Virus record (IMG/VR): IMGVR_UViG_3300010365_001407
Coordinates: 49,463-113,462 of that record
Direction: 5' to 3' (one strand)
Source of the DNA: a virus
Taxonomy: Duplodnaviria > Heunggongvirae > Uroviricota > Caudoviricetes
Length of the DNA stretch: 64,000 bases
The notes beneath the pieces are model-generated. The model did not search any database. It worked only from the letters and a program-made list of their open reading frames with translations, and was not told the DNA's origin. The position numbers were made by a program, and so were the translations under genes. This document shows positions 2,137 to 44,940 of the stretch, piece after piece. The first letter of the stretch is position 1; each line of letters starts with the position of its first letter.

Positions 2137-2159
2137 AGATTATATATAAAAATAGTAAA

Positions 2160-7033: not shown

Positions 7034-7119
7034 AAGAGAGCAAGGGAATCGAACCCTAGCCAGTTTCCCGACCGTCACGCTTAGCAGGCGGACCCTATCA
7101 CCATCAAGGTTTACTCTCC
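7034..7119 (-). tRNA. tRNA-Ser (anticodon GCU), class II long variable arm
   Basis: Reverse complement has a 7/7 acceptor stem (GGAGAGT/GCTCTCT with G-U pairs), anticodon loop CUGCUAA, a long variable arm and T-arm GGGTTCGATTCCC. Confidence 0.6.
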
Positions 7120-7128
7120 ATTTTTTAG

Positions 7129-7214
7129 CAGTGAACAAGGGAATCGAACCCTAGCCAGTTTCCCGACCGAACTGCTTTCCAGGCAGACCCTATCACCATC
7201 AAGGTTTACTCACT
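7129..7214 (-). tRNA. tRNA-Ser (anticodon GGA), class II
   Basis: Near-identical scaffold to 7034-7119; anticodon loop CUGGAAA; acceptor AGTGAGT/GTTCACT. Confidence 0.6.
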
Positions 7215-7218
7215 ATTG

Positions 7219-7306
7219 CGGAAGAAGTGAGACTTGAACTCACACGGGTGTTACCCCCAACAGTTTTCAAGACTGCGACCCATAGACCAACTTGGCTTAT
7301 TCTTCC
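7219..7306 (-). tRNA. class II tRNA, anticodon read as UGA (Ser); assignment tentative
   Basis: Perfect 7-bp acceptor GGAAGAA/TTCTTCC, T-arm GTGAG-TTCAAGT-CTCAC, anticodon stem-loop GCAGT-CTTGAAA-ACTGT and a long variable arm. The D-arm is hard to place by eye. Confidence 0.5.
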
Positions 7307-7349
7307 ATATTTTTAATTATACCACTTATTGTACCTTTTGATACTTTTG

Positions 7350-7435
7350 TGGAGAAGTGAGGTATCGAACCCCATGCGAGTAAACGCACCCACAGTTTTC
7401 AAGACTGGGTTTAGCACCTGCTAAATTACTCCTCC
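7350..7435 (-). tRNA. class II tRNA, anticodon loop CTTGAAA (UGA-like); identity tentative
   Basis: Acceptor GGAGGAG/CTTCTCC, T-loop TTCGATA and a 17-nt variable arm. It has the same anticodon loop as 7219-7306, so one of the two may be mis-read. Confidence 0.45.
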
Positions 7436-7442
7436 ATATTTG

Positions 7443-7515
7443 TGATTCCAATAGGATTCGAACCTATATCTGATCGTTCGTAGCGACCTATCCTATCCAA
7501 TTGAACGATGGAACC
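7443..7515 (-). tRNA. tRNA-Arg (anticodon ACG)
   Basis: 73 nt; acceptor GGTTCCA/TGGAATC, anticodon stem GGTCG/CGATC with loop CTACGAA, T-arm TAGGTTCGAATCCTA. Confidence 0.6.
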
Positions 7516-7522
7516 AATAAAA

Positions 7523-7552
7523 AAACCCACAAACTTTGAGGTTTGTGGGTTT
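7523..7552. terminator. bidirectional rho-independent terminator hairpin
   Basis: AAACCCACAAAC-TTTGAG-GTTTGTGGGTTT is a perfect 12-bp stem flanked by A-run and T-run. Confidence 0.6.
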
Positions 7553-7727
7553 CAAATAACTTTTAACTTAAAATTATGAATACACAAGAACCTCACTCAA
7601 TTTACTTGAGCGACTTGAAGAACTTGACGATGTAGTGCTTTGCACTCTCACTATGTGAGTACTTATAATTGTTTTCATAACTTATATATTAAAAATTTAT
7701 TCTTTTGTTTTACTTTTTTACTTTTAG

Positions 7728-7820
7728 TAGTCTGAACAGGAATCGAACCTGTGATGCGCGGAAGATACCCCTACTATATATAGGATCGACTACATAATGT
7801 TACCACTACATTATCAGACT
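7728..7820 (-). tRNA. tRNA-like element with irregular core, possibly Ile(UAU)-like or a pseudo-tRNA
   Basis: Canonical acceptor AGTCTGA/TCAGACT and T-arm ACAGG-TTCGATT-CCTGT, but 93 nt long. About 10 extra nt sit between the D-arm and the only good anticodon-like hairpin (TCCTA-TATATAG-TAGGG), which has A at position 33. Confidence 0.35.
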
Positions 7821-7829
7821 ATTTTTTTG

Positions 7830-7901
7830 TGCGGACTGACGGAATCGAACCGACCTCTTATGGGCTTCAACCATACGCTAAACCGTCTCAGCTAAATCCG
7901 C
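7830..7901 (-). tRNA. tRNA-Phe (anticodon GAA)
   Basis: 72 nt; acceptor GCGGATT/AGTCCGC, anticodon stem TATGG/CCATA with loop TTGAAGC, T-loop TTCGATT. Confidence 0.6.
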
Positions 7902-8678
7902 ATTATATTTTTTTATCCATTTTCTTATAGTGTTATCACTAACACCATATTTTTTACCAGTTGAGACATAGTTTGTTTCTTTTATATCTTTTAATAGTTG
8001 GTATAATGAAGGTCTTTCAACCTTTCTTTGTTTAAATGAATCACATTTAGAACACATTTTAGAACGTTTATATATTTCTATACCACATTCACAATACTTT
8101 TTATTATCTAATAGTTCAAATGTTGGTTTGTTTTCTACTAATCCATTTATATAAAGTATTAAACTGTCAATAAAATACTTTTTAGAATCCTTGTTCAATA
8201 ATTGATACTCACTCCATTTTATTCTAATTATATCCCAACCTAAGTCTTCTAAATATTTATTTCTTCTTTTATCACTTTCAATAATTTTATTATCTAAATA
8301 GTGTTGACTACCATCAACCTCTATATCTATTTTCTTATCTAAAATACAAAAGTCTAATTCGTACAATCCAATTCTGTAGGATTTTGTTATATTAATATTT
8401 TTATCTAAAAAAACCTCAGTAAAATATTTCTCAGGATATGATTCATTTCTACTATGATTTAATAGGTAAGGAACTTTATCAGGATTATTTTTTAAATATT
8501 CTTTTCTACTATTTGATATTTTTTTTCTAGTTTCATCTGATAACTTTCTATTTTTACCAATTTCACTTAATTTACTACATCTAATTTTATAATTTGGATT
8601 TAATTTACAATTTGTAATATGTCCACCAAGTTTTAATCCATTTTCTGTTGTAAATCCACAATACTTACACTCCTTCAT
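7878..8678 (-). CDS. homing-endonuclease-like protein (N-terminal Zn finger, NUMOD3-like motifs, Vsr/DUF559-like PD-(D/E)xK domain)
   Basis: 266 aa; CKYCGF...HITNC, LSDETRKKISNSRKEY, and YELDFCILDKKIDIEVDGSQHY...RRNKYLEDLGWDIIRI. Confidence 0.6.
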   Translation of the reverse strand: MKECKYCGFTTENGLKLGGHITNCKLNPNYKIRCSKLSEIGKNRKLSDETRKKISNSRKEYLKNNPDKVPYLLNHSRNESYPEKYFTEVFLDKNINITKSYRIGLYELDFCILDKKIDIEVDGSQHYLDNKIIESDKRRNKYLEDLGWDIIRIKWSEYQLLNKDSKKYFIDSLILYINGLVENKPTFELLDNKKYCECGIEIYKRSKMCSKCDSFKQRKVERPSLYQLLKDIKETNYVSTGKKYGVSDNTIRKWIKKYNADLAETV

Positions 8679-8754
8679 AATTCAATTATCTTTTCTTTTA
8701 TATATAAATAATTGAACTCCCTCTCCTTAAAAAAGCTGAGTGCTTGTAAATTAG

Positions 8755-8833
8755 TTCCCCCGACTGGGTACGATCCAGTAGTCTGCATATTAAAAGTATG
8801 CGGCTTTCTCCATTTAAGCTACGGGAGAGAATT
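8755..8833. repeat. 79-bp direct repeat, copy 1 (contains tRNA-Lys)
   Basis: Identical to 9152-9231: GTTCCCCCGACTGGGTACGATCCAGTAGTCTGCATATTAAAAGTATGCGGCTTTCTCCATTTAAGCTACGGGAGAGAATT. Confidence 0.9.
8756..8828 (-). tRNA. tRNA-Lys (anticodon UUU) with A54:U58-swapped T-loop
   Basis: Acceptor TCTCCCG/CGGGGGA, D-stem GCTT/AAGC, anticodon stem GCATA/TATGC with loop CTTTTAA, T-arm ACTGG-ATCGTAC-CCAGT. Confidence 0.55.
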
Positions 8834-8838
8834 ATTTG

Positions 8839-8911
8839 GGTGAAAGACGGATCCCGAGACCGCATCTCCTCCTTCACAGGGAGGCATCCTAACCTTTAGA
8901 CGACAATCACC
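8839..8911 (-). tRNA. degenerate tRNA-His-like element (anticodon GUG, G-1/C73), possible pseudogene
   Basis: Perfect anticodon arm CCTCC-CTGTGAA-GGAGG with extra 5' G and discriminator C. Only 5/7 acceptor pairs and a non-canonical T-arm (GCGGT-CTCGGGA-TCCGT). Confidence 0.3.
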
Positions 8912-8920
8912 ATATATCAG

Positions 8921-8991
8921 CACGCCATACAGGACTCGAACCTGTAACACTGGTTTTGGAGACCAGGATGATACCATTTCACCAATGACGT
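8921..8991 (-). tRNA. tRNA-Trp (anticodon CCA)
   Basis: 71 nt; acceptor ACGTCAT/ATGGCGT, anticodon stem CTGGT/ACCAG with loop CTCCAAA, T-arm ACAGG-TTCGAGT-CCTGT. Confidence 0.6.
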
Positions 8992-8998
8992 ATTTTGG

Positions 8999-9072
8999 GT
9001 TGACAGACGGGACTTGAACCCGCAATCCCTTGGCTCACAACCAAGTGCTTTAACCAATTAAGCTACCATCAA
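8999..9072 (-). tRNA. tRNA-His (anticodon GUG)
   Basis: Acceptor TTGATGG/CTGTCAA (two G-U pairs), D-stem GCTT/AAGC, anticodon stem CTTGG/CCAAG with loop TTGTGAG, T-arm GCGGG-TTCAAGT-CCCGT, discriminator C. No encoded G-1. Confidence 0.5.
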
Positions 9073-9074
9073 AG

Positions 9075-9146
9075 TGGAGAGAGTGGGGATCGAACCCACG
9101 ACACCTGCGGCTTCAACACAGTGCTCTACCTCTGAGCTACCTCTCC
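9075..9146 (-). tRNA. tRNA-Phe (anticodon GAA), second copy
   Basis: 72 nt; acceptor GGAGAGG/TCTCTCC, D-stem GCTC/GAGC, anticodon stem CTGTG/CGCAG with loop TTGAAGC, T-arm GTGGG-TTCGATC-CCCAC. Confidence 0.6.
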
Positions 9147-9151
9147 TTTTT

Positions 9152-9231
9152 GTTCCCCCGACTGGGTACGATCCAGTAGTCTGCATATTAAAAGTATGCG
9201 GCTTTCTCCATTTAAGCTACGGGAGAGAATT
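9152..9231. repeat. 79-bp direct repeat, copy 2 (contains the second tRNA-Lys)
   Basis: Identical to 8755-8833. Confidence 0.9.
9153..9225 (-). tRNA. tRNA-Lys (anticodon UUU), duplicate
   Basis: Identical sequence to 8756-8828. Confidence 0.55.
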
Positions 9232-9237
9232 TATTTT

Positions 9238-9702
9238 TTAAATCTTAATATTCATATTATTAATAAATTGTAACATGCCCCAATTTTGTTGTTTTGAGGT
9301 TCTTATTCTATGACAATTGGCACACCTAACATCACATTTATTTATCTCATTTTTTATTTTAACTAAATCAACACCTTCACTAATCATATCACATAAATTA
9401 CCAATCTTTTCAACATTATCTTTGTGATCAAATTCTAATACTATTGGATTATTTTCACCACAATCAACACAAGGATTTTCCAAAAGATAATTATAAATAT
9501 ATTCAATTCTTTCAATTTTTCTTTTTCTTTTTCTTTCATTTATCATAGGTTTCATTATTTCTTTATTGACTTTATAATAATTATGTGAATTATTCTTACT
9601 ACAAACTCTACATATAGAATTCAAACCATCTTTTCTAACTTTATTTTTATTAAACTCTGTTTTATTTTTAACTTCTTTACATGTACCACAATACTTTTTC
9701 AT
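9238..9702 (-). CDS. HNH homing endonuclease
   Basis: 154 aa; CGTC...CRVC zinc knuckle and C-terminal EFDHKDN...CANCH HNH motif. Confidence 0.7.
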   Translation of the reverse strand: MKKYCGTCKEVKNKTEFNKNKVRKDGLNSICRVCSKNNSHNYYKVNKEIMKPMINERKRKRKIERIEYIYNYLLENPCVDCGENNPIVLEFDHKDNVEKIGNLCDMISEGVDLVKIKNEINKCDVRCANCHRIRTSKQQNWGMLQFINNMNIKI

Positions 9703-9795: not shown

Positions 9796-10032
9796 GTTTT
9801 ATTATTCTCTTATCTATATAACTAACTATTTAAAGTTACATCTGAGAATGACATACTCATACATCCGAACTTGTGGCTAAACCACTTGAACGACTTACTA
9901 AAGCTTGTATGTTTGAAATTTGTTCTCATTATTGTATATATTAATTTATTATTGTTCCTTTTTGTTATTTTGTTATTTTTATAGTACAAATATATAAAAA
10001 GTTTATATATCTACCTAATTTTTATGCTATTT

Positions 10033-10293: not shown

Positions 10294-10446
10294 AGTGTAA
10301 ATATATAAAAAGTTTTACTTTCTACCTAATTTAATGTTATTTTTATCTACAAAAAATGATTATCGGTTAACCAATTTTCACTCATAATTTTTAAATTTTA
10401 AGCTTTAGTCCCCATATTAAATATCCTACAAATATTCCTAATAAAA

Positions 10447-11066: not shown

Positions 11067-11580
11067 AATTTCTAATTTTTAGTTCTGCAAATGTAGAACA
11101 ATTATTTTAATCTACCTAATTTATTTTAAAAAATATGAAGAGGGTGGAACGCCTGTTAAGTATGGCCGGAATCCGAGAGCCTAACCTTAACTTTTATGAT
11201 CTAATCACTTGGGATTACCTTTTAATGGATTTGTGTCCTTGGTTTCGTAGTGTTACCATTCTACGCATTTAATTTCTTCATAGTGTTGGATTTAGTTTCA
11301 GTAAGTTATTTTCTTATTTATAACCTACTATCATCTGTTTAGATTTTGAGTATTTATTACCATCACAATTTCAATACTACACCTTTACATTTTATCATAT
11401 ATTTAAGTACAAGGTAGTTCACTAATTTTATCAAAGGTGTTAACTTATTTGTTAGCTACTTACTACCATAAACATTATTAAAGTTATGTGACCTTTGTTC
11501 ATTATTTATAACAGTCAACCTTAATAACTTCTTATTATTATACAAATATATAACAAAAGTTTTAATTTGAAAAATTTATT

Positions 11581-11594
11581 TTAATATATAAGTA
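11581..11594 (+). promoter_or_regulatory. TTAATATATAAGTA promoter-like motif directly upstream of the ATG at 11595
   Basis: Conserved motif family. Confidence 0.35.
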
Positions 11595-13220: not shown

Positions 13221-13562
13221 AATCAAATCATTGATTCGATCATTTATTTCATATAATAAACCCATACATTCTCTTTTCAAATCCTTTAGTCTATTAAAAT
13301 CACTGACACTAATTGGTTTATTTAGAGCATCATCTATACCTCTTATTTCTAATTCAATATTGTCTCTGATTAAACCAATCTCAAATAGAATATCTCCTTT
13401 GATTTCATTTATTAATAAACTAAAATAAGGATTACTCATAAGTCTTTCTTTGTATGTAGATACATTAAAACTTTTGATAATCCTTTTTAAGTTTTTTATT
13501 ACTTCTTCTTCACTACCTGAACTATGGAGTTTTTCAAAGAAGTCTTCTATGTTATGTTTCAT
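13212..13562 (-). CDS. hypothetical protein
   Basis: 116-aa ORF overlapping the start of the downstream homing-endonuclease gene. Confidence 0.45.
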   Translation of the reverse strand: MKHNIEDFFEKLHSSGSEEEVIKNLKRIIKSFNVSTYKERLMSNPYFSLLINEIKGDILFEIGLIRDNIELEIRGIDDALNKPISVSDFNRLKDLKRECMGLLYEINDRINDLILL

Positions 13563-14428
13563 GTTTTTAAATCTCTTTTAACTTTATAAATAAGTGATTG
13601 GCTAAATCCAGTATTTTCTTTTATCTTTTTAATATCTTGTCCCTCAATAAGTAGATTTTGTATAATGTTATATTTATCACATTTTAATGTTCTATCAACC
13701 ACTCTATCCCATTTTCTTTTCATTATAGGTAAATTTAGAGACAATGCTCTATTCTTAATTTTAAGAACTACTTTATTTTTAGTTATACATATTTTTGAAC
13801 ATCCATCAGGTGATATATAAAAATTCTTTTTTGATGATGTTAGTATATAATATGCTTCTTCTAAAAAATATCCCCATGAAGAATCACATTTAAGATATAA
13901 TAAACCCTTTTTACTTATACAACCATCACCATCTATAAATCCAATCATCATGCTAAATAGTTGGTCATTGGTTATGTTATAAGGTATTTTTACTGGATTC
14001 TTGGTTTTATTAGACAACCAATTAAAGTCATTAGATAATTTACTCACACTTTTTCTATCTGAAATTACAAGTCTTATATCATTTTTATACTCATATTTGC
14101 ATACTTTTCCTATATGTTCTTCAATTTTTAAAATATATTCTTTATCTTTTATTGATAAGTTTATCTGAATGTTGGATTTTTTGTATATATGACCATCAGC
14201 AAGTATAAAACCTATCCAATAACAAGTTATATTATCAGTGTAATCAATTATTTTTGAATATTTTGAGTTATTTTTTGATTCATTAGAACCTTTTTTTATT
14301 TTATTTAAACAAGCAATTTTTTGTATATAGTTCCAAGAAAGATTTGTATCTTTAATTATTTCATCTTTAGATTTTTTATTATAATTTGATTTCAAATAAT
14401 CAATCAATTTTATTTTAGATGGTTTCAT
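13559..14428 (-). CDS. LAGLIDADG homing endonuclease, two-motif single chain
   Basis: 289 aa; YWIGFILADGHI and MMIGFIDGDGCI LAGLIDADG motifs, HTH-like tail; promoter-like motif at 14430-14458. Confidence 0.75.
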   Translation of the reverse strand: MKPSKIKLIDYLKSNYNKKSKDEIIKDTNLSWNYIQKIACLNKIKKGSNESKNNSKYSKIIDYTDNITCYWIGFILADGHIYKKSNIQINLSIKDKEYILKIEEHIGKVCKYEYKNDIRLVISDRKSVSKLSNDFNWLSNKTKNPVKIPYNITNDQLFSMMIGFIDGDGCISKKGLLYLKCDSSWGYFLEEAYYILTSSKKNFYISPDGCSKICITKNKVVLKIKNRALSLNLPIMKRKWDRVVDRTLKCDKYNIIQNLLIEGQDIKKIKENTGFSQSLIYKVKRDLKT

Positions 14429-15390: not shown

Positions 15391-15711
15391 TTAGTTTAAG
15401 TGAGTGTTAATCAATTCCGCTAATTTTTCTTTAGTTGTCATTCCTGTACTTCTTTCAACAATCTCTCCATTTTTGAAAAGAATTAATGTAGGAATATTTC
15501 TAACTCCTAATTCAACAAGAATGTCTCTATTCTCATCAGCATTTAATTTACCAACTTGTAATTGCTCCATAAACTCTAAAGAGATTTGATCCACAATTGG
15601 TGAAATTTGAAGGCACGGCGCACACCATTTTGCCCAAACATCTATCAAAACCAAATCATTTTTAATAAAACTTTCATAGGTTGAGGGTGTTAAATCTACT
15701 GCATTTGTCAT
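15391..15711 (-). CDS. trxA: thioredoxin
   Basis: 106 aa; WAKWCAPCLQISP contains the CxxC active site (WCAPC here, canonical WCGPC), and the overall length and layout fit thioredoxin. Confidence 0.75.
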   Translation of the reverse strand: MTNAVDLTPSTYESFIKNDLVLIDVWAKWCAPCLQISPIVDQISLEFMEQLQVGKLNADENRDILVELGVRNIPTLILFKNGEIVERSTGMTTKEKLAELINTHLN

Positions 15712-15783
15712 AATTTTATATTTGTTTTATAATTATATAAAAGATGTATAAAAAGTTTATTTTTATACAGGGTGAACACCACT

Positions 15784-15799
15784 TTTTTATATATACTAT
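15784..15799 (+). promoter_or_regulatory. TTTTTTATATATACTAT promoter-like motif abutting the ATG at 15800
   Basis: Conserved motif family. Confidence 0.35.
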
Positions 15800-16522
15800 A
15801 TGGAAAATAATAATACAGAAATAGCATACATATATGCCTTATTAGATCCAAGAGATAATGAGGTTAGATATATAGGAAAAACAACACAACCAAAGAATAG
15901 ATTATCAGGTCACATAAGAGAATGTAAAAATATAAAATCTCTACATTATAGAGCAAAATGGATTAGATCTCTCTTAAAGAAAGAACTATTACCTATAATA
16001 AAATTTCTAAAGATATGTCCTTTATCTGATTTTGTTAAATATGAAACAGAGTATATACAAATATATAAAAATGATAAATTAACCAATTCTGATGAAACTG
16101 GTAGTGGTAATACAGGTAGAAAAAAAGAAGTATTGGATAGACAATCAAAATCTAGTGGTAGAATAGTTTATCAATACAATTTAGATGGTAAATTTATTAA
16201 AGAATATCAATCTGTTAGATTTGCTGCAGATTGTCTAAATTTATCACATTCAAATATATCAAGGTCTTGTAATGGAATATCTAAACATGCAGGTGGATTT
16301 ATATTTAGATATGAAAAAGTAAATGTTGAAAAATTAGAAAATCCAAATGCAGTAAAGAAATCAGTCATAGAAATAGATACTTTAGGTAAAGAAATAGGAA
16401 GATGGAACTCACTTATGGATTGTAGTAGAGATACTGGCTTAAGAAATGAGGCAATTAGCAAACTTTGTAATAAAAGATATGGATCCAAATCAGTAGGTGG
16501 TAGATATTTTAAGTTTGAATGA
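15800..16522 (+). CDS. GIY-YIG homing endonuclease
   Basis: 240 aa; IAYIYALLDPRDNEVRYIGKTTQPKNRLSGHIRE GIY-YIG motif at the N-terminus; basic C-terminal DNA-binding region. Confidence 0.7.
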   Translation: MENNNTEIAYIYALLDPRDNEVRYIGKTTQPKNRLSGHIRECKNIKSLHYRAKWIRSLLKKELLPIIKFLKICPLSDFVKYETEYIQIYKNDKLTNSDETGSGNTGRKKEVLDRQSKSSGRIVYQYNLDGKFIKEYQSVRFAADCLNLSHSNISRSCNGISKHAGGFIFRYEKVNVEKLENPNAVKKSVIEIDTLGKEIGRWNSLMDCSRDTGLRNEAISKLCNKRYGSKSVGGRYFKFE

Positions 16523-16523
16523 A

Positions 16524-16550
16524 AAAACCCACATCTTTGAGGGTTTTTAA
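16524..16550. terminator. terminator-like hairpin between convergent genes
   Basis: AAAAACCCACATCTTTGAGGGTTTTTAA. Confidence 0.4.
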
Positions 16551-16783
16551 TTCAAATCTAAGTATTTTTTGAAATTTGTAATAAATTCACTTTCATCTAC
16601 AATATCACTTGCTATAAGATTTTTATCAATGAAAAAGGAATACATAAACTTATCATCTAAATCATCTAGATCATCTAGTATTAGTATTTTATTTTCACTA
16701 AATAATAAAGTTATTTTATTCTTTTCAATAAAATAATCTATTGGTTTAAACTCACTAATTATATTCTCAGTATTCATATTCAT
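16547..16783 (-). CDS. hypothetical acidic protein
   Basis: 78-aa ORF. Confidence 0.4.
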   Translation of the reverse strand: MNMNTENIISEFKPIDYFIEKNKITLLFSENKILILDDLDDLDDKFMYSFFIDKNLIASDIVDESEFITNFKKYLDLN

Positions 16784-18039
16784 TATATTGTGAAAAGTTT
16801 ATCTATAACTTCTTTATCATCTGTTTCAGATATTTCTTCTAGTATTCTACTTACTTTACCTTTTGTATCATTGACAATTTCTTTTCTAACAGATAATTCA
16901 AGTAGTAATTTAGTTTGTTCATCTAACTCAATATCTTTATCTAACTTATTCTTTTCTAATACAGATATTGCAATTATAGGGTCATCCTTATACACTTCAA
17001 GAAGTTTCTTTATAAGATTAATCTGTTCTGATAACTTTAGACCTTTTAGATTAGATATTGCATTAGGTGCATTGTAAACAAATCTTGAAAGAAGTTTAAT
17101 ATCTTCTTCACTTACTTCTTTATCAACATAATCTGGTGTATCATAAAAATAATGTAAGTGTTCCCAAATTAATTGTAGATTTTGATTTTTATTACTATAA
17201 ATATTTCTAATATAGAATAAATAGTTATCAGCTTTTAAATCTGATAGGTTTTTATCTTCAAATACTCTTTGATTACTAGATACTAACTTCCAAAGTTTAA
17301 CATCTTTGTTTTGTGAAACTCTGAGCCATTCAATACATTGAACATCTTTCTGTAAATAAAAGAACTCACTTAATCTATCAATGTATTTAGCAAATACCTC
17401 TAAATATCTTTCTTGAAATCTAACTTTATATGGACTTAAATGAACATTTTCACTTAAAGCATATTGTAAGATATTTAATTCAAAGTCAGTAAGAGTAGCA
17501 TTTAATTCATCTGCTTTTTTGATTATTCTTAATACTGTATGAGAAGGTGTCTTAACATTAGTAATTCTTAATATTCCTGTCTCTAAGAATTTTTCAAATT
17601 CATCAGTCCAGTAATATTCATCATTATCAATTGAATATCCAATTGCTGTACAATTAATATCAAAAGAATCAATTACCACTCTTGGTTCTGGTGAATTAGA
17701 TTGATACTTTATATAATTGAATATACCATCTTTAGTAGATTCAGTTATACAATAAAAATCTTTTTCTTTAGTCATAAATGCAATACCATTATAATCTTCA
17801 TACCAAATATCTTCTTTGGTAGAGTGTTCATAAAGTGTTTGAGATTTATCTTGTATTAATTTTTCTAATATACCATCAAATAAAAAAACATCAATATCAT
17901 TGATGATGGCTTTGTTACCTGATACTTCTTCCCAGATTAGGTTTGCAATAGATCCACCAGCAATAAAACCACTTTGAGGAAGACCCCAAGTGGTTTTAAT
18001 TCTATCAATTGCTTTTTCTGCTAATTGTTTTACATTCAT
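16783..18039 (-). CDS. pol-beta-superfamily nucleotidyltransferase (class-I-CCA-like or CD-NTase-like head), function unknown
   Basis: 418 aa; N-terminal GFIAGGSIANLIWEEVSGNKAIINDIDVFLF fits the hG[GS]...[DE]h[DE]h nucleotidyltransferase signature. Confidence 0.5.
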   Translation of the reverse strand: MNVKQLAEKAIDRIKTTWGLPQSGFIAGGSIANLIWEEVSGNKAIINDIDVFLFDGILEKLIQDKSQTLYEHSTKEDIWYEDYNGIAFMTKEKDFYCITESTKDGIFNYIKYQSNSPEPRVVIDSFDINCTAIGYSIDNDEYYWTDEFEKFLETGILRITNVKTPSHTVLRIIKKADELNATLTDFELNILQYALSENVHLSPYKVRFQERYLEVFAKYIDRLSEFFYLQKDVQCIEWLRVSQNKDVKLWKLVSSNQRVFEDKNLSDLKADNYLFYIRNIYSNKNQNLQLIWEHLHYFYDTPDYVDKEVSEEDIKLLSRFVYNAPNAISNLKGLKLSEQINLIKKLLEVYKDDPIIAISVLEKNKLDKDIELDEQTKLLLELSVRKEIVNDTKGKVSRILEEISETDDKEVIDKLFTI

Positions 18040-18227
18040 TATTTTTTCTTTTTAATGTTCATTATCTCTGCCATATGGTCATTGATAACTCTTCTTGTTG
18101 TGTTTTCCTTATAAGTTTCCTTTACCTCTTTATTTTCAGGTGTATCATCTTTCTTTATTAAGATTTTATATACAGCACCAGTTATTAGTACTGCTATGAA
18201 TAAACTTGGTATAATGTATTTTGCCAT
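18039..18227 (-). CDS. small single-pass membrane protein
   Basis: 62 aa; hydrophobic N-terminal helix IIPSLFIAVLITGAVYKILI; start overlaps the stop of the upstream ORF. Confidence 0.4.
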   Translation of the reverse strand: MAKYIIPSLFIAVLITGAVYKILIKKDDTPENKEVKETYKENTTRRVINDHMAEIMNIKKKK

Positions 18228-18243
18228 AGTTTTTTATTATTAT

Positions 18244-18888
18244 CTATAAAAACATTTCATCTATCTCTGAAAACTCTTTCTTAGATTGTTCCATTAGAAT
18301 ATGACGACCATTTCTAATTTGAGATTTTATAGTAGATAAGTTTTTATCTAATTTATCTGCTATGTCTTTATATGACATTCTGTCAATCTCTCTCATTTCA
18401 ATAACTGTCTTATAAGGTTCTTTCAATTCTGAGATATGTTTCTTCAAAACATCTGCTTTTTTACTATACACATCATAAACTGCTTCATTACTTTCAGTTT
18501 CTTGTATAAAGTCTTTTAGAGTAGTTCCTTCATCATCAAATTCAATGTCTAATGAAATACTTCTGTTTTCTATTTTTAAGTCTTGTAATGCAAGATTTCT
18601 TGCTATTGTAAATAACCAAGTTGAAAATTGAGCTTTCTCTTTATCATACTTGTCTATTTTTTCCAGTGCTACTATGAAAGAGTCTGTAGAAATATCCTCT
18701 GCTTTTTGCACATCCTTACATATCTTAGATATGAAGTAAATTAATTTTGGGTAGTATTTTGAGTAAAGTGTTGAAAAGTCTTTACCAGTTCTTTCTTTAA
18801 AAATTACTTCTTGTTCACTGAACAAGCTCATTGGGGCTGCTGTTGATACCATTAATTGCTTTTTAGTTTTTTGTTGACTTGCTGTCAA
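18244..18888 (-). CDS. sigma-70-family (ECF-like) RNA polymerase sigma factor
   Basis: 214 aa; region-2-like FSTWLFTIARNLALQDLK and region-4 HTH MSYKDIADKLDKNLSTIKSQIRNGRHIL. Confidence 0.65.
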   Translation of the reverse strand: MTASQQKTKKQLMVSTAAPMSLFSEQEVIFKERTGKDFSTLYSKYYPKLIYFISKICKDVQKAEDISTDSFIVALEKIDKYDKEKAQFSTWLFTIARNLALQDLKIENRSISLDIEFDDEGTTLKDFIQETESNEAVYDVYSKKADVLKKHISELKEPYKTVIEMREIDRMSYKDIADKLDKNLSTIKSQIRNGRHILMEQSKKEFSEIDEMFL

Positions 18889-18983
18889 TTGCTTTTGATT
18901 TATTTGATTGCTTTATATTGTAACAATTTATATTACAAAGTATATATAAAGTTTGATTAGTCCTCTATGTTTTTTTATACTTT

Positions 18984-19397
18984 TTAATTGTCAAAAAAGA
19001 ATAAACACCTAACCTTCTCTGGGTCAGTATCTAATTGTTTCATCTTTTCAATTGTTTCAAAAAATTCTGAAATATATTCTGTCTCATACTTTGACCAGTC
19101 AACATCTAATAATTCTTTTAATGTGAAGTAAGATTTTGAATGTGCATCTCCTTCCCATTGTCTTAACTGTTCTTTATAAGCATCTGAAATATCATCAGGA
19201 ACACCTCTTGGTTCACTAATAGATTCATCACCACCTCTTACACCAGCTAAGATACCAAATAAATAGTAATTTCTACCAGCATAGAATCTTTTATCTCTTA
19301 CTACTGACCAGTAAGCATATTCATCGTCTTCATCTGCAAATCCTAAAATACCAAATATTAATCCACCTACTAATAATCCTACTATAAATGCCCACAT
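18984..19397 (-). CDS. membrane-anchored hypothetical protein
   Basis: 137 aa; N-terminal TM helix MWAFIVGLLVGGLIFGILGF. Confidence 0.45.
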   Translation of the reverse strand: MWAFIVGLLVGGLIFGILGFADEDDEYAYWSVVRDKRFYAGRNYYLFGILAGVRGGDESISEPRGVPDDISDAYKEQLRQWEGDAHSKSYFTLKELLDVDWSKYETEYISEFFETIEKMKQLDTDPEKVRCLFFFDN

Positions 19398-20268: not shown

Positions 20269-22088
20269 TATTTCAACATATTTTCTAATTCATCAACAGT
20301 AAGGATTTTAACTCCTAAACTAATTGCTTTTGTTTCTTTACTTGATCCTGAACCTTTAGCTTTCATTACAAGGTGAGAAGTAGTTTTTGATACAGATGAA
20401 CCAATTTTACCACCTCTTGATGTAATAGTTTCTTCTAAATCAGCTCTTCTTACTCCAGTAAATACAAATGATGTACCAGCTAAATCATCACCAACTTGAA
20501 CAGCTTCCACTTTTTGTGCAATTGTTATTGGAAGGTCTTTAACAAATGTATAGAATTTATCATAACTATCCAAATAAGACTTGGCTGAAATCTCAGCAAA
20601 TCCTTCTATTGACATAACTTGTTCTAATGTAGGCTTTTCTGAAAACTCTAATAGAGCTAATTTTTTACTACCTAATCCTTTAAATAATCCTGTTGCATGT
20701 TGTAATTTAGATAATTCAACATTCTCAGTACATTTTCTAATTGAATCAAATACAATAGCAGCTTTTCTCTTACCAAATCGATCGATTGATTCAAAATCTT
20801 TTTTAGTTGCATTTAAAACAGCTTCAACTGTTTGGTAACCTGCATCCCATAATTGATTAATAACACCTTCTCCAACATTATCGGCTTCTAAAATTTCAAA
20901 GAAAGAAACAATTTGTTTTGTTTTTTGTGTATCAGTTTCAGTTAGAGTAATCAATTCAATTCCTGCTTCATTCCATCCAAGTTCAACACCTTCAATTGTT
21001 GGTAGAACAAACTCAACAGTTTTAGTAACTTCAACGATTTTAGGAATAACCATACCACTGCGGATTACTCTAATTTTTGAACCAATACCCAATCCATTAT
21101 CCTTAACAAATTTTGCATTATTTCCAGTTACATTAGAAACAGTTACTCCATCTAAATTAATTGGTTCCACCTGTATAACAGGTTTCAATAAACCCTGTTT
21201 AGAAATATTCCAAGTTATTCCAGTTACTGTTGTTATTTTATTTTCAACAAAAGAAATGTGTTTAAAAGCTCTTGAAAAACAAGGATTTGATGTTGAAGTT
21301 TCTCTACCTAATTCTTCTTGTAATTTTAGATTATTTATCTCAATAATAAGACCATCAATTTCATAATCAATAGACCACTCTTTGAATAAATCAATTAATA
21401 AGTTTTCTGATAAATCAGATATTTTAGAGATATGATAAGAAACTTTAATATCTTGATTATTATTTAGTTCATCAATAAGTTCTTTTTTTGTAGATAATCC
21501 ATCAATAACACCACCATATTTAATATAATCAATATCTTCTAATATATCATGTAAAGTTTTAGAATTCAACATTCCAGCTACTAAGTTTCTAGGATTTGCA
21601 AATTCTTTTGAGTATTTATCTAAAAATACTTTTTTAGACATTATGACTTCTCCATAAGTTATGGAAAAGTTTGTATTTTTATTAAGTTTATTGTTTATTA
21701 ATTTATAATGTTCATTAGAATTTTGTCCAATAAACCCATCACCTCTAGTAGTTGCAGTATCTTTTATTTCATCAACACATAAAGATAATCCATCAAACTT
21801 AGGAGTAATAATCACCTCTTCATTTTTAGATATTCCTTTTAACCTACACCAATCAGATATTTCCTCCATAGTTTTAATCTTATTCATACTAAACATAGGA
21901 ATAGGTAATTTAACCTTTCTAGAATCATCCAATACTTCAATTCCTACTTTATTAAAGTATTCATTTTCTGGATCATACTCTAAAAGAGTTTCTAGTAATT
22001 GATCATAATCATAATCAGACATTATAGGATTTCCTTGTCTGTATTTATCATTAGCTTCTTCTAATTTTTCTACTATTCTATCTATCAT
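20268..22088 (-). CDS. ligA: NAD-dependent DNA ligase (LigA-like)
   Basis: 606 aa; N-terminal Ia-like YDYDQLLETL, adenylation motif TPKFDGLSL (KxDG) and a C-terminal BRCT-like FVFTGVRRADLEETITSRGGKIGSSVSKTTSHLVM. Confidence 0.75.
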   Translation of the reverse strand: MIDRIVEKLEEANDKYRQGNPIMSDYDYDQLLETLLEYDPENEYFNKVGIEVLDDSRKVKLPIPMFSMNKIKTMEEISDWCRLKGISKNEEVIITPKFDGLSLCVDEIKDTATTRGDGFIGQNSNEHYKLINNKLNKNTNFSITYGEVIMSKKVFLDKYSKEFANPRNLVAGMLNSKTLHDILEDIDYIKYGGVIDGLSTKKELIDELNNNQDIKVSYHISKISDLSENLLIDLFKEWSIDYEIDGLIIEINNLKLQEELGRETSTSNPCFSRAFKHISFVENKITTVTGITWNISKQGLLKPVIQVEPINLDGVTVSNVTGNNAKFVKDNGLGIGSKIRVIRSGMVIPKIVEVTKTVEFVLPTIEGVELGWNEAGIELITLTETDTQKTKQIVSFFEILEADNVGEGVINQLWDAGYQTVEAVLNATKKDFESIDRFGKRKAAIVFDSIRKCTENVELSKLQHATGLFKGLGSKKLALLEFSEKPTLEQVMSIEGFAEISAKSYLDSYDKFYTFVKDLPITIAQKVEAVQVGDDLAGTSFVFTGVRRADLEETITSRGGKIGSSVSKTTSHLVMKAKGSGSSKETKAISLGVKILTVDELENMLK

Positions 22089-22275: not shown

Positions 22276-22360
22276 TGTATATTTTTTATTTTACAAATAT
22301 ATATAAAATATTTCAATTTATTACAAAAAAAGTATAAAATTATTACTTTTTGAGTTTTGA

Positions 22361-22568: not shown

Positions 22569-23312
22569 ATGAAAAGGAAAGGTAATGGATATTGGACATA
22601 TGAAAGATGTAGAGAAGAAGCTTTAAAATATATTAGTTCATCTGAATTACAAAGAAATTGTAGTAGTGTATATAATAAAATCTATATTAATGGTTGGAAT
22701 GAACTTACTCAACATTTTATTAAAATTGGGAATAGATATAAAAGATTGGTATATGTTTATGAATTTAGTGATAATTTTTTCTATGTAGGTCTTACAGGTA
22801 ATATCAATAGAAGAAGAAAACAACATATTAATGATATTGATAGTTCTGTCTATAAACATTCAAAATTAACAAAGTTAAATCCAAATTTATTGATAGTATC
22901 TGATTATATTGATGTTGATAATTCAGTAGAATTGGAAAAAATCTATTTTGATAAATATATTAAAAATGGTTGGATTTCACTTAATAAAGTAAAAACTGGT
23001 AATATTGGTTCATGTAATATAAAATGGAACAAAGAAGAATGTATTAAAGAGAGTTTGAAATATTCAAAGATAATAGATTATCAGAGAAATTCTAAAAGTT
23101 CATATAACTCAGCACTTAAAAATGGTTGGGTTGATGAAATATGTTCTCATATGATAAGAAGAAAGTGTAAAAATGGTGAATATAATGATAAAAACAAATG
23201 TTTTATTGAAGCAAGTAAATACAAAAGTAAGTCAGAGTTTCATAAAAATAATTGGAGTGCCTGGAATTACTCAAAAAAGAATGGTTGGTTGTATGATTTT
23301 TATGATAACTAA
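22569..23312 (+). CDS. GIY-YIG domain (homing-endonuclease-like) protein
   Basis: 247 aa; RLVYVYEFSDNFFYVGLTGNINRRRKQH GIY-YIG core with repeated W-containing modules either side. Confidence 0.55.
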   Translation: MKRKGNGYWTYERCREEALKYISSSELQRNCSSVYNKIYINGWNELTQHFIKIGNRYKRLVYVYEFSDNFFYVGLTGNINRRRKQHINDIDSSVYKHSKLTKLNPNLLIVSDYIDVDNSVELEKIYFDKYIKNGWISLNKVKTGNIGSCNIKWNKEECIKESLKYSKIIDYQRNSKSSYNSALKNGWVDEICSHMIRRKCKNGEYNDKNKCFIEASKYKSKSEFHKNNWSAWNYSKKNGWLYDFYDN

Positions 23313-23361
23313 CTTTTAATAATAATACTATATAATATAGATAAAAATAAAATAAATAATA

Positions 23362-24528
23362 ATGGATTTTACAAATAAATATAATGATAAAGAGAAAAAG
23401 AAAAATGGAGTTTTTTACACTCCAAAAGACATAGCTGAGTTTATGGCTAGTAAAAGTAAGTTTGATGATGGTAAAGGTATATGGTTGGATCCTTGTTGTG
23501 GATTAGGTATATTAGCCATATCACTGGCATCAATTCAAGATGATCCTATTGATTTTATAGAAAATAGACTCATAATCAATGATATGGATAAATTTCAATT
23601 AGATATAGCCTTAAATAATTTTAAAGAAAAATTTGGTGTTATTCCTAAAAGTTTCAATGAGGATTTTTTATCTTATGATTTTAAGTGTGATTATGTTATA
23701 ATGAATCCACCTTACTTCAAATATAAAGATAGTGATATATATGCATATTTTATAGAAAAGGTTTGTAATATATCAAATGGATTTATTAGTATAAATCCCA
23801 TTTCATTTACTAATGGTTCAAAATTTAAAAAGATTAGAAAATCTATTTTAGATTTTAGTTCTATAAATTTGTATCATTTTGACAATATACCAGGTCATAT
23901 TTTTGATGATGCTGATGTTAGAGTTTCTATAATTGTATCAAGTAATGTAGAAAATAATAGAAAGACAACTACTCAAATTAGATGGCAATCAAAGAAGAGG
24001 GAAGAAATGATTAAAAATTTGGATAGTAATTTAGATGAAGCTATTTTTACAGAAGATATTTTTTATAAAACATCACCAAATACAACACATCTTATACATG
24101 ATAATACATTATCAAATTATGTGGTTAATAAATCAGATTATCCAATTTATATCACTAGTCTTACAAGATATTTTATAACAGGATCAACTAAAAAATTAGA
24201 TAGAAATGGTCAGATAGAGATTTTTCTAAAAGATGAAGATTCATATAATAAAGCTTTAATTATGATAAATAGTTCATATCTTTATTGGTGGTGGAGAACA
24301 TCAGATAGTTCAATGTCTTTAACTAAAAGAACTTTATTATCTTTACCATGGATAGATTTCAAATATGAAAATGATATAATATCTGAGGTATTGGAAAGTG
24401 AGAATATAAATAAGGTGTATAAAATGAATGCTGGGAAATCACAGGAAAATATTAAACATAGTAAAGAATTGGTTGCCAAATTAAATTCATTATTTATACC
24501 AGGGGACTTTATTAAACTTCAAGATTAA
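23362..24528 (+). CDS. N6-adenine DNA methyltransferase, gamma class (TaqI/Eco57I-like)
   Basis: 388 aa; motif X GVFYTPKDIAEFMA, motif I LDPCCGLGILAISLA, motif IV VIMNPPYF, then a variable TRD-like C-terminal half. Confidence 0.75.
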   Translation: MDFTNKYNDKEKKKNGVFYTPKDIAEFMASKSKFDDGKGIWLDPCCGLGILAISLASIQDDPIDFIENRLIINDMDKFQLDIALNNFKEKFGVIPKSFNEDFLSYDFKCDYVIMNPPYFKYKDSDIYAYFIEKVCNISNGFISINPISFTNGSKFKKIRKSILDFSSINLYHFDNIPGHIFDDADVRVSIIVSSNVENNRKTTTQIRWQSKKREEMIKNLDSNLDEAIFTEDIFYKTSPNTTHLIHDNTLSNYVVNKSDYPIYITSLTRYFITGSTKKLDRNGQIEIFLKDEDSYNKALIMINSSYLYWWWRTSDSSMSLTKRTLLSLPWIDFKYENDIISEVLESENINKVYKMNAGKSQENIKHSKELVAKLNSLFIPGDFIKLQD

Positions 24529-36411: not shown

Positions 36412-36441
36412 TAACTATATATAAAATTATCAGACATAAAA

Positions 36442-39469: not shown

Positions 39470-40117
39470 ATGACATATATTTACTCACTTGAACATCCTC
39501 TCACTGGAGAGATAAGATACATTGGGAAAACAAGAAGTCTTAAACAAAGATATTATTCACATACAGAAAATTATTCAAATAAAAGAAATAAATCTCATAG
39601 AACTAATTGGATCAATGGTCTCAAAAAAGATGGATTAAAACCAATTATAAAAATACTTGATGTAGTTGATGATAATGAATGGAAATTTTGGGAAATATAT
39701 TGGATTTCTCAATTTATAACTTGGGGATTTAATTTAGTTAATCATACTTATGGTGGTGAAGGTTCACAATTTGGTAATATAACATCTTTTAAAAAAGGTA
39801 ATATACCTTGGAATAATGGTACTGCTAAACCAAAAGAAATTAAAGAAACTAGAGGAAAATCTGAAAATAGTATAAAAACACAATTTAAAAAAAATCATAT
39901 CTCTTGGAATAAGAATAAAAAAGGTTATAAATTAACAGGTAATAAAAAAGCCAGACCTGTTTTGCAATATGATATAGAAGGTAATTTTATAAAGGAATAT
40001 GATAGTTGTTTAGATGCTGCAAATGAATTTGGATGTATTCTAGAAAATATAAGAAAAGTATGTGTTGGTAAGGGAAATACTGCAAAAGGCTTTATATGGA
40101 AATATAAATTTATATGA
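39470..40117 (+). CDS. GIY-YIG homing endonuclease
   Basis: 215 aa; YIYSLEHPLTGEIRYIGKTRSLKQRYYSHTE GIY-YIG motif; basic C-terminal half with NUMOD-like KxGxxxW repeats. Confidence 0.7.
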   Translation: MTYIYSLEHPLTGEIRYIGKTRSLKQRYYSHTENYSNKRNKSHRTNWINGLKKDGLKPIIKILDVVDDNEWKFWEIYWISQFITWGFNLVNHTYGGEGSQFGNITSFKKGNIPWNNGTAKPKEIKETRGKSENSIKTQFKKNHISWNKNKKGYKLTGNKKARPVLQYDIEGNFIKEYDSCLDAANEFGCILENIRKVCVGKGNTAKGFIWKYKFI

Positions 40118-40279
40118 AATACCATTTTTCTGTACATTTTTTACCTGATGCATTATCAGTAGTAAAATAATTAAATAATTCTTTTCTCATATTATATATA
40201 TTAAAAATTATGTTCTTTCCTATGAGAAATACCAAACATTTTAGTTTTTATTAATATAATTTACTAAAACAATCTTAAT

Positions 40280-42184: not shown

Positions 42185-42994
42185 ATGAAAATATCAAATA
42201 TAATTAGAGAGTCTATTAAAAATGATACATTATTTTTGGAACCAATTGAAATTTCAAAAAAATATAAAATTTGCCTATCAACAGTATATAATATTAAAAA
42301 GTCTGAAAATATAGAATCTAAAATACCAAATAAAAAATATAATCTGAATGATGAATATTTTGAAAATATTGATACTGAGGAAAAGGCTTATTGGTTAGGA
42401 TTTTTATATGCAGATGGATATGTAAGGATAAAGGATGGTAGATCTGGAGAGTTAAGATTAAAATTAAAGACTGGTGATAGGAAGCATATTGAATTGTTTA
42501 ATAAACACATAGGTTCTGATTATAATATTAAAGATATTACAACAAATGTAAAAGGAGTAGATAGTTTTGCATCATTTGTATCAATTTATAACACAAAATT
42601 AGTCAATGATTTAATTAAACATGGATGTGTTAGTAAAAAATCATTTATAGTAGAATTTCCAAATATTGATAAATCATTAGAAAGACACTTCATAAGAGGA
42701 TTTTTTGATGGAGATGGATGGTTTTTTATTAGAAAAATAAAAAATGGTATATATCCAAATTTTGGTATATGTTCAGCATCCAAAATAATAATAGATCAAA
42801 TTTATAAAATATTAGAAAATAATAATATAATATGTAGGTTTGAAAGGTCTGGTGTTACATATAGAGTGTGTAACACATGTAATGACTATATGGAAAAAAT
42901 ACACAACTATCTATATTCCAATTCAAGTGTTTATCTAGATAGGAAATTTAATATATTTTCAGATTATCTATCTGACAAAAAACCACTCATTTGA
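42185..42994 (+). CDS. LAGLIDADG homing endonuclease
   Basis: 269 aa; YWLGFLYADGYV and IRGFFDGDGWF motifs. Confidence 0.75.
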   Translation: MKISNIIRESIKNDTLFLEPIEISKKYKICLSTVYNIKKSENIESKIPNKKYNLNDEYFENIDTEEKAYWLGFLYADGYVRIKDGRSGELRLKLKTGDRKHIELFNKHIGSDYNIKDITTNVKGVDSFASFVSIYNTKLVNDLIKHGCVSKKSFIVEFPNIDKSLERHFIRGFFDGDGWFFIRKIKNGIYPNFGICSASKIIIDQIYKILENNNIICRFERSGVTYRVCNTCNDYMEKIHNYLYSNSSVYLDRKFNIFSDYLSDKKPLI

Positions 42995-43992: not shown

Positions 43993-44862
43993 TTATAGTT
44001 GTTTAGTTAATTCATTGTATAATTTTTCAAATACATCATATGATTTATCTGTTATCATAATATATGTATATCCTTCTTTAATTGTATATTCTTTTTTAAG
44101 AATGTTTTTATTTTTATGTAAATTATAGTAGTATGTTGATTTAATTTCTATTATTAAATTAATACTTTCAATATAAAAATCAGGTAAGTATTTTCTTTTT
44201 TTACCATCTTCATAATAATCTATTGTAAATTTTGGTTTTGATATAGGTATATTACTATTTTTACAGAAATGTAAAAAATTCAACTCATATTTACCTTGAT
44301 ACTTAATACTTTCAAAATCATTTATTAAAAATGATGATTTTATTCTTTTATCATTTATTTCATTAGACTGCATAGGATTTTCAACTCCATATTTCTCAAT
44401 CATACTTTGTTTATATGTAATTGAGTTTACATAATTACTAGAATTATATTTAATCATACAAGTCTTTCTTGTCTTATCTTTTACTAACTCTGATTTATTT
44501 GGATTATCAAATCCATATCTATTAATACAAGTACTTTTAATCTTATCTAAAATTATTGGATTTTGTAATTGATGTTGAAAACCTGTTCTTTTAAAATATG
44601 TTTTTTCTCTCTTTTCTTTTGAGCATTTTGATGAACAAGAATAATAACCACCATTTTTTATATTTTTAATATATTTTTTATAACTTAATTTTTTTTCATT
44701 GTCACATAAATCACATTTGACTAATAATGGTATTGTAACACCAATTGGTAAATCACTTATATTTACTAATATAAAATCATTGACCTTACAATTATACTTC
44801 TCTTTGTAGAAGCGTATATTGGCTCTATGTATTTTAACTTCTATTTCTTTATCTATTATCAT
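43993..44862 (-). CDS. homing-endonuclease-like protein with C-terminal PD-(D/E)xK fold
   Basis: 289 aa; Cys-rich N-terminus (CDLCDN...CSSKC), repeated ~33-residue modules (NPNKSELVKDKTRKTCMIKYNSS... / NPMQSNEINDKRIKSS...) and C-terminal YLPDFYIESINLIIEIKS. Confidence 0.5.
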   Translation of the reverse strand: MIIDKEIEVKIHRANIRFYKEKYNCKVNDFILVNISDLPIGVTIPLLVKCDLCDNEKKLSYKKYIKNIKNGGYYSCSSKCSKEKREKTYFKRTGFQHQLQNPIILDKIKSTCINRYGFDNPNKSELVKDKTRKTCMIKYNSSNYVNSITYKQSMIEKYGVENPMQSNEINDKRIKSSFLINDFESIKYQGKYELNFLHFCKNSNIPISKPKFTIDYYEDGKKRKYLPDFYIESINLIIEIKSTYYYNLHKNKNILKKEYTIKEGYTYIMITDKSYDVFEKLYNELTKQL

Positions 44863-44940
44863 AATGTATATATAAAATATATACTTCTCCCATACTATAT
44901 AAGGTCTAAATTAATAAAAATAGTTTAGACTATTAATTTT

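Follow-up and report, generated by a model that had tools for sequence, protein, structure and literature searches.

A sigma factor gene in a huge phage raises the question of which promoters the factor would read, and whether the small protein encoded beside it would hold it in check. The gene lies on the minus strand of a 64,000-nt stretch of uncultured viral DNA (positions 49,463 to 113,462 of IMG/VR record IMGVR_UViG_3300010365_001407), called the window below and drawn from a genome of probably ~600 kb. The initial annotation had described an extracytoplasmic function (ECF)-like sigma factor co-transcribed with a 62-aa single-pass membrane protein, taken as its anti-sigma partner, and had offered TTAATATATA as the cognate promoter. 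Our reading, to which we give a probability of about 0.55, is that the gene encodes an ECF-type sigma factor with bipartite promoters of the pattern AACTT-N15/16-TATAA[AT] (class C) as its likely targets, that the single-box motif TT[AT]ATATATA (class A) marks a separate late class, and that the small protein is no canonical anti-sigma factor.

The sigma assignment itself stands, including region 2 and the region 4 helix-turn-helix (HTH). Both Pfam domains that the initial annotation had named for a hidden Markov model search were found, Sigma70_r2 (PF04542) at residues 41-105 (E 1.1e-14; 54.4 bits against a cut-off of 24) and Sigma70_r4_2 (PF08281) at residues 152-195 (E 1.1e-10; 41.4 bits against 25.7), and the NCBIfam model TIGR02937 (sigma70-ECF) scores 75.2 bits with a cut-off of 42.9. 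PHROG 1740, annotated as RNA polymerase sigma factor, also matches, and the closest solved structure, Bacillus subtilis SigW (5wuq), gives a full-length alignment (residues 26-189, E 3e-16). The protein has the sigma-2 and sigma-4 domains only, without regions 1.1 or 3, and judged by its sequence is a genuine phage ECF-type sigma factor. The named subfamily and equivalog models of NCBIfam (SigW, RpoE, Sig70_bacteroi1 and others) all remain below their cut-offs, for example 89.8 against 126.4 and 86.1 against 209. A large protein collection holds 1686 homologs under the Joint Genome Institute (JGI) name "RNA polymerase sigma-70 factor (ECF subfamily)", so the identification itself was already in public annotation. 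As listed, the open reading frame (ORF) is 214 aa long (18244-18888, minus strand) and opens with TTG, 12 aa ahead of the ATG at 18852. It is this ATG that aligns with the starts of all 16 relatives (M-x(5-8)-FSEQEK); since all of them start at the aligned codon, we take it as the conserved start, and the TTG at 18888, favoured initially, is probably unused. Some homologs from outside the window (P0236, P0240, P0245, P0254, P0274 and P0301; 75-89% identical) reach 268-273 aa. Variants of this type carry an insertion of ~68 aa inside the region 4 HTH, between YKDIA and LSTIKSQIRNGR and in place of DKLDKN; the insertion is too short for an intein and has no intein junction residues, and in most variants that bear it Pfam detects no region 4.

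The best tblastn matches to the sigma factor lie on LR745206 and LR756502, uncultured phage genomes of 634-642 kb (64-66% identity), with LR756504 and LR756501 next and the Lak Prevotella megaphages after them at ~32%. We assign the window to a huge phage of Bacteroidota from the Mahaphage/Lak clade, whose largest members (>634 kb) are predicted to infect Bacteroidetes (PMC7162821). Iyer et al. placed Lak among the T4-like "group 2.2" jumbo phages, which have no RNA polymerase of their own and encode two sigma factor types and a gp33 ortholog (PMC7824862). Papers on Lak phages yielded no sigma factor or promoter information, and a megablast search of phage records with 5 kb around the locus gave no match.

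The element conserved upstream of the sigma gene has two boxes. Its AAC and TATAA stand 17 or 18 nt apart at every one of 20 related loci (16 distinct sequences), and the sequence of the spacer varies. The window holds six copies of the class C pattern, five of them intergenic and facing a gene (Table 1). Across 21 related loci there are 42 matches where 4.8 ± 2.4 are expected, and 40 of these face an ORF. The copy upstream of the thioredoxin gene is kept in 12 of the 12 relatives read, with differing spacers, and several of these relatives have no ATATATA box there; in some related genomes the genes that such elements face include those for SmpB and ligase. The promoter-like motif reported upstream of sigma is therefore present as a class C element, but exact TTAATATATA is not found there, only a variant that sits inside the class C spacer; among relatives this embedded ATATATA begins 3-8 nt from the AAC. 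An intact region 4 implies a -35 element, and we prefer class C because its rigid two-box spacing with an AAC upstream box fits a sigma factor that has kept this region. We hold class C to be a better candidate than class A, and put the odds that it is the cognate promoter at about even.

In several respects the factor resembles cellular ECF sigma factors such as B. subtilis SigW and Escherichia coli RpoE: it consists of sigma-2 and sigma-4 in ~200 aa, aligns with SigW over its full length, and has upstream of its gene a conserved promoter-like element with an AAC -35-like box set 17-18 nt from a -10-like box. It differs from them in being phage-encoded and below every subfamily and equivalog cut-off, in having no recognisable anti-sigma partner, in a -10-like box of TATAA[AT] rather than the CGT type, and in its leader. 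Cellular ECF sigma factors usually autoregulate (PMC3817407).

The leader between the class C element and the sigma start codon is unusually long, 65-101 nt among relatives (L001-L021) versus 15-25 nt for other class C genes. In the window it carries three AAAGCAAT boxes (18907-18914, 18888-18895 and 18855-18862) and a hairpin, TTGAC-AGCAA-GTCAA, at 18874-18888. Leaders of the relatives have two or three (A/C)GGCAAT boxes in differing reading frames, one of which ends 2-3 nt before the ATG. The hairpin is kept with a different stem in L001, L002, L013 and L015; the hairpins run from TTGA to TCAA, with stems TTGAC/GTCAA, TTGAGGA/TCCTCAA, TTGATGGTCA/TGATCATCAA and TTGAATCTT/AAGGTTCAA. Folds of single sequences show the hairpin with weak energies and z-scores, and RNAalifold on a MAFFT alignment of the leaders, in which the hairpins are misaligned, predicted no structure. 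The AAAGCAAT boxes are not enriched window-wide (8 versus 4.8 expected) and draw notice only because three of them cluster here. Boxes and hairpin together suggest an additional control of sigma synthesis. In L011, L013, L014 and L016 the entire leader is open and in phase with sigma.

Class A is distributed differently. There are 27 copies, 22 of them in the intergenic 8.4% of the window, and TTAATATATA alone occurs 12 times where 3.7 ± 2.0 are expected. Most copies stand exactly 4 nt or 16-26 nt before an ATG on the same strand. They precede virion-structural and tail-fibre genes (3465 and 57353), giant ORFs (25828, 44973 and 51912) and some nine homing-endonuclease genes. The motif is enriched also in distant relatives that keep a sigma homolog. 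Each site is a single AT-only -10-like box, and no fixed upstream box was seen at class A sites. TTWATATATA thus appears to be a real promoter-like motif, as the initial annotation had it; the evidence leans against the cognate role suggested for it there, in that it is a single box and class C is what is conserved at sigma. Class A is more likely a late promoter class read by another factor. The spacing of exactly 4 nt between box and ATG is seen in about nine cases, such as 2141-2150(-), 11581-11590(+), 15786-15795(+) and 36416-36425(-), with further sites at 44867-44876(-), 51898-51907(+), 7683-7692(-) and 40195-40204(-). A transcription start 5-8 nt after the box would give leaderless or near-leaderless mRNAs at such sites; some of the ATGs that follow class A boxes open unannotated ORFs.

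A third motif, class B (TAnnTTTG), is the -7 consensus of Bacteroidota sigma-A (PMC9723704); seven genes, small and for the most part divergent, have it 4-24 nt ahead of them. A scan with the sigma-70 consensus gave 29 promoter-like matches versus 33.8 in shuffled sequence and is uninformative for this host. The exact 11-mer AATTAGGTAGA recurs at 10010-10020, 10321-10331, 11111-11121 and 21303-21313, always on the minus strand. In the 10-11 kb region three promoter-like boxes each have a copy 12-20 nt upstream. The enrichment of the 11-mer over the window is marginal; an activator site or an operator is one possible role.

The small ORF begins 16 nt beyond the sigma stop codon (TAG at 18246-18244; ATG at 18227) and in a different frame; nothing in this gap matches a promoter or a terminator. 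The stop-start overlap initially ascribed to sigma and the small ORF belongs instead to the small ORF and the next gene, which share TAATG at 18039; the same overlap with that ATG is found at every locus carrying the small ORF. Co-transcription with sigma is plausible, and the arrangement indicates that translation of the small ORF is coupled to that of the following, Gad2-like gene rather than to that of sigma. All eight small-ORF loci read (L005, L007, L008 and L017-L021) show the order sigma, small ORF, 415-418-aa gene. At 12 of the 20 related sigma loci the small ORF is missing. In L001, L013, L014 and L016 the 418-aa homolog follows sigma directly, and in L006, whose sigma is 96% identical to that of the window, the small ORF is cleanly absent, and all that is kept of it is a stretch of ~17 nt directly before the next ATG. 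In L002, L009-L012 and L015 a gene for a ClpP-like protease occupies the slot. The slot is a variable region between two conserved genes, and the small gene is therefore dispensable. The succession of sigma and the Gad2-like gene, by comparison, is kept in 18 of 18 closer-relative loci (sigma identity 64-96%) and lost in two distant huge phages (L003 and L004).

The 418-aa product of the downstream gene has the DNA polymerase beta (Pol-beta) motif GGS…DIDVF and the fold of poly(A)-polymerase/CCA-adding-enzyme-like nucleotidyltransferases. Precomputed PF26128.2 assignments are present on most of 120 listed homologs, including one 99% identical (P0085); for the protein itself the Pfam copy searched returned only a weak NTP_transf_6 match and not PF26128. 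Gad2, a predicted nucleotidyltransferase of 400 aa, inhibits Gabija defence, and the Gad2 of SPbetaL7 is toxic when expressed (bioRxiv 10.1101/2023.05.01.538930). The 418-aa protein is like Gad2 in family, Pol-beta motif and size. The likeness is at profile level only, however, tblastn finds no Bacillus phage Gad2, no pairing of Gad2 with a sigma gene has been described, and an anti-Gabija role of the 418-aa protein is putative. In relatives the start of the Gad2-like gene is always 0-18 nt from an upstream stop.

The single transmembrane (TM) segment reported for the 62-aa protein is borne out by a Kyte-Doolittle 19-residue maximum of 2.1 (residues 6-24) and by an AlphaFold2 (AF2) model with helix 5-27, a linker and helix 34-61, of modest confidence (mean predicted local distance difference test score, pLDDT, 68.7). 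A profile built from four syntenic copies retrieved 84 small-ORF clusters (43-92 aa), and an exhaustive HMMER profile search of 1.84 billion representatives only 15, all of 41-87 aa; an IMG/VR peptide-pattern search for relatives found none, the relatives having come from reading loci and from the profile search. Pairwise ratios of nonsynonymous to synonymous rates (dN/dS) are 0.24-0.40 and length variants stay in frame. Purifying selection acts on the small ORF, a real gene that is lineage-restricted and fast-evolving. Its family has three N-terminal forms: a TM-anchored one (M-x-x-YIIP…GA[IV]YK), a soluble acidic helix (MKDIKKILEYAKYTFDEAEKVKEY…) without a hydrophobic segment, and a form of 43-49 aa with neither. 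What all share is only the C-terminal tail, R-x-[IVL]-N-[DE]-H-[MIV]-[AS]-x-[IV]-[ML]-[NK]-[IL] and a lysine-rich end, with N and H invariant. The conserved part is thus a C-terminal amphipathic helix with the N-[DE]-H motif, and the membrane anchor is optional. A 263-aa sigma-small ORF "fusion" (P0224), considered as Rosetta-stone evidence, was rejected as an artefact, the gene call crossing the TAG (DNA: TTA TAG AAA TTT ATG). On the European Nucleotide Archive (ENA) contig concerned (L023) the public call had read the sigma stop as Gln and so merged the two genes; alternative-code gene calling can produce such false fusions on short contigs of this clade.

Taken as the cognate anti-sigma factor, the 62-aa protein would hold sigma at the membrane until a signal comes, with TTAATATATA as the sigma promoter. 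The small ORF does stand immediately after sigma at 8 of the 8 loci that carry it, is probably co-transcribed and encodes a predicted TM helix, and all relatives have a motif A variant upstream of sigma. Some ECF sigma factors do have small membrane regulators, for example that of the sigY operon of B. subtilis. The 62-aa protein resembles the membrane anti-sigma factors of the RsiW, RseA, ZAS and FecR types in its adjoining an ECF sigma gene and its single TM helix. It departs from them in its length of only 62 aa and in a reversed topology, with the helix N-terminal, only 4 residues ahead of it and no binding domain before it, and searches of Pfam, NCBIfam, PHROGs and PDB profiles and the exhaustive profile search detected no anti-sigma domain or other family. 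Neither the soluble nor the short form has kept the TM segment, and therefore membrane tethering is not the conserved function; motif A lacks a -35 element in spite of the intact region 4 of sigma, and the lone apparent fusion of the two genes is artefactual. With no family match, no TM segment in two of the three forms and no gene at most loci, including the one with the 96%-identical sigma, the anti-sigma reading is unsupported, and we consider it improbable. That the small ORF occurs only beside sigma weighs on the other side, and would suit a lineage-specific modulator of sigma, to which we likewise give little credence. A service to the Gad2-like nucleotidyltransferase, as partner, as tether or as an upstream ORF that tunes a potentially toxic enzyme by translational coupling, is a somewhat doubtful alternative. 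It would account for the stop that overlaps the Gad2-like ATG wherever the small ORF is present, for the short distance of that ATG from an upstream stop in relatives, for the last ~17 nt of the sigma-to-Gad2 region that persist even without the ORF in L006, and it accords with the toxicity of the SPbetaL7 protein. Most relatives' Gad2-like gene functions without the small ORF, however, and synonymous changes occur in the conserved N-[DE]-H tail, so that the peptide, not RNA alone, is under selection.

Several points tell against the class C reading, in which promoters are assigned to factors from sequence patterns. Most ECF promoters have a -10 of the CGT type, which the -10-like TATAA[AT] does not resemble. 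A single base separates the -10 boxes of class C (AATATAAA) from the core of class A (AATATATA), a class A box is present in every sigma promoter spacer, and one factor might read both classes. Class C could also be read by a remodelled host sigma factor with a phage activator, in the style of T4 middle promoters. No gp55/gp33-type factors were found in the window, beyond which the search for them did not extend; a tblastn search of phage records with T4 gp55 reached Atu_ph07 as its farthest match (E 3e-3) and did not reach this clade. A single sigma factor with two architectures, class C with -35 and -10 and class A as a perfect extended -10 that needs no -35, so that TTWATATATA would be cognate after all, strikes us as rather unlikely. 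Besides the one-base difference, it could call on the enrichment of motif A in distant relatives that keep the sigma homolog, on the finding of no second sigma factor within the window, and on phiEco32, whose sigma factor uses the single element tAATGTAtA (PMC8948821). That factor lacks region 4, however, which the present one keeps; the gene sets differ, class A serving virion and homing-endonuclease genes and class C DNA metabolism; the 64 kb seen are a small part of the probable genome; and related T4-like jumbo phages are reported to have a minimal late sigma factor and gp33 (PMC7824862). Like the sigma factor described here, phiEco32 gp36 and Salmonella phage 7-11 gp47 are phage-encoded, divergent members of the sigma-70 family. 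Both redirect the polymerase of the host to phage promoters of the middle or late class, and those of 7-11 gp47 are bipartite with a 16-bp spacer (PMC8948821). The present case differs from both in its Bacteroidota host and its huge T4-like genome; no sequence relationship with either was seen, no search aimed at one having been made. T4 late promoters have the sequence TATAAATA and are served by the gp55/gp33/gp45 system. Class A resembles them as a single AT-only box of 8-10 bp with no -35, near the start codon and before virion and free-standing homing-endonuclease genes, and the clade is grouped with the jumbo phages just mentioned; the sequence TTWATATATA is nevertheless not TATAAATA, and the present sigma factor, with full regions 2 and 4, is not gp55-like. 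We regard it as very improbable that the factor is a host-derived gene that switches on host ECF regulons and not phage genes. Its best NCBIfam matches are cellular ECF families (Sig70_bacteroi1 and SigW, for example), and phage sigma factors that act on host programmes are known (PMC9429907), but the scores are far under every equivalog and subfamily cut-off, the gene is a conserved syntenic core gene in the closer relatives of the phage clade, and the phage has conserved candidate promoters of its own whose -35 element is an ECF-like AAC.

Under the class C reading, read-through from a host-type promoter (class B, 22294-22301) would supply the first sigma molecules. These would bind the host RNA polymerase core and redirect it to phage promoters. 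The factor would then amplify its own operon from the class C promoter by positive autoregulation, with the small protein and the Gad2-like enzyme co-expressed, and would turn on the other class C genes, which here are those for thioredoxin, the DNA methyltransferase and the SbcC-like protein and in relatives SmpB and ligase; the set would serve DNA metabolism and host takeover. Virion genes and homing endonucleases would be served by class A as a separate late class, for which another phage factor is probably responsible. As for the small protein, it would more likely be a modulator that the phage can do without, and its target may be the Gad2-like enzyme, which is prone to toxicity.

Table 1. 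Coordinates of the sigma operon and of the candidate promoter elements in the window.
Feature	Position	Strand	Basis or remark
ECF-type (group 4) sigma coding sequence, 202 aa	18244..18852	-	Pfam, NCBIfam, PHROG, SigW alignment; start conserved in relatives
Sigma region 2	~18574-18768	-	
Sigma region 4 HTH	~18304-18435	-	
Small protein, 62 aa	18039..18227	-	TM helix aa 5-27 (nt 18147-18215), linker, C-terminal helix with conserved tail (nt 18042-18095)
Gad2-family (PF26128) Pol-beta-type nucleotidyltransferase, 418 aa	16783..18039	-	Precomputed PF26128 on homologs, Pol-beta motif, fold
78-aa ORF, unknown function	16547..16783	-	Final co-directional gene; start overlaps Gad2-like stop
Sigma 5' leader, 74 nt	18853..18926	-	Unusually long; boxes and small hairpin
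Class C element AACTTTATATATACTTTGTAATATAAA	18927..18953	-	-35-like AACTT and -10-like TATAAA, upstream of sigma
Class A copy TTTATATATA in class C spacer	18941..18950	-	88 nt from sigma ATG
Class C element AACTTTTTATACATCTTTTATATAAT	15732..15757	-	20 nt upstream of thioredoxin gene 15391-15711(-)
Class C element	23311..23336	+	25 nt upstream of DNA methyltransferase-like gene 23362-24528(+)
Class C element	63662..63688	-	21 nt upstream of SbcC/Rad50-like gene 61943-63640(-)
Class C site	9978-10003		Intergenic, gene-facing

The operon runs from promoter and leader through the ECF-type sigma factor, the small accessory protein and the Gad2-family nucleotidyltransferase to the 78-aa ORF. It forms the end of a minus-strand gene block (22275 to 16547) that is headed by the host-type promoter and is nearly gapless up to a 131-nt region before sigma. 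The gene directly upstream of sigma (18984-19397, minus strand; PHROG 10141) opens with the hydrophobic stretch MWAFIVGLLVGGLIFGILGF. Homologs of it in L002, L005, L009 and L010 begin MGCDIHF… instead and are ~30 aa longer, which points to a replaced or truncated N-terminus in the present genome. The window has a GC content of 23-33% and is 92% coding in the standard code, with TAA as stop codon in 53 cases, TAG in 8 and TGA in 6. Its other content includes tRNA arrays, SmpB, an NAD-dependent ligase and many homing endonucleases. The two tRNA arrays (7035-7901 and 8754-9226, minus strand) comprise at least 13 genes, with a tRNA-Sec model match at 7351-7435 (52.9 bits) and an ARAGORN call with a four-base anticodon at 7727-7820; a 55-aa ORF (8698-8865) overlaps a tRNA-Lys and is probably spurious. 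Free-standing homing-endonuclease-like genes of the GIY-YIG, LAGLIDADG, HNH and Vsr-like kinds are unusually dense (7878-8678, 9238-9702, 13559-14428, 15800-16522, 39470-40117, 42185-42994, 43993-44862, 58702-59775 and 60902-61975), and nearly every one has a class A motif to itself. The one at 15800-16522, of the GIY-YIG kind, is an insertion between thioredoxin and the sigma operon and is missing there in several relatives. A HINT domain lies within 50428-51852.

For gene scheduling in uncultured Bacteroidota megaphages, the sigma factor with its conserved candidate promoter offers a directly testable entry point. What is new is a bipartite candidate promoter conserved among relatives, an operon that links sigma to Gad2 and a family of small proteins with an N-[DE]-H tail. 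The linkage of sigma and Gad2 suggests that counter-defence falls within the sigma regulon. More tentatively, we envisage a three-tier programme in which host sigma-A (TAnnTTTG) primes an autoregulated sigma factor, this factor opens a class C middle regulon, and separate class A late genes follow, with the small protein as a lineage-specific modulator of the switch. If this holds, AACTT-N15/16-TATAAW would be a previously undescribed bipartite promoter, an anti-defence enzyme of the Gad2 family would belong to the middle regulon together with thioredoxin, SmpB and genes for DNA repair, and many class A transcripts would be leaderless or nearly so. The sigma factor and the class C candidate would also supply an orthogonal sigma/promoter pair for engineering in Bacteroidota.

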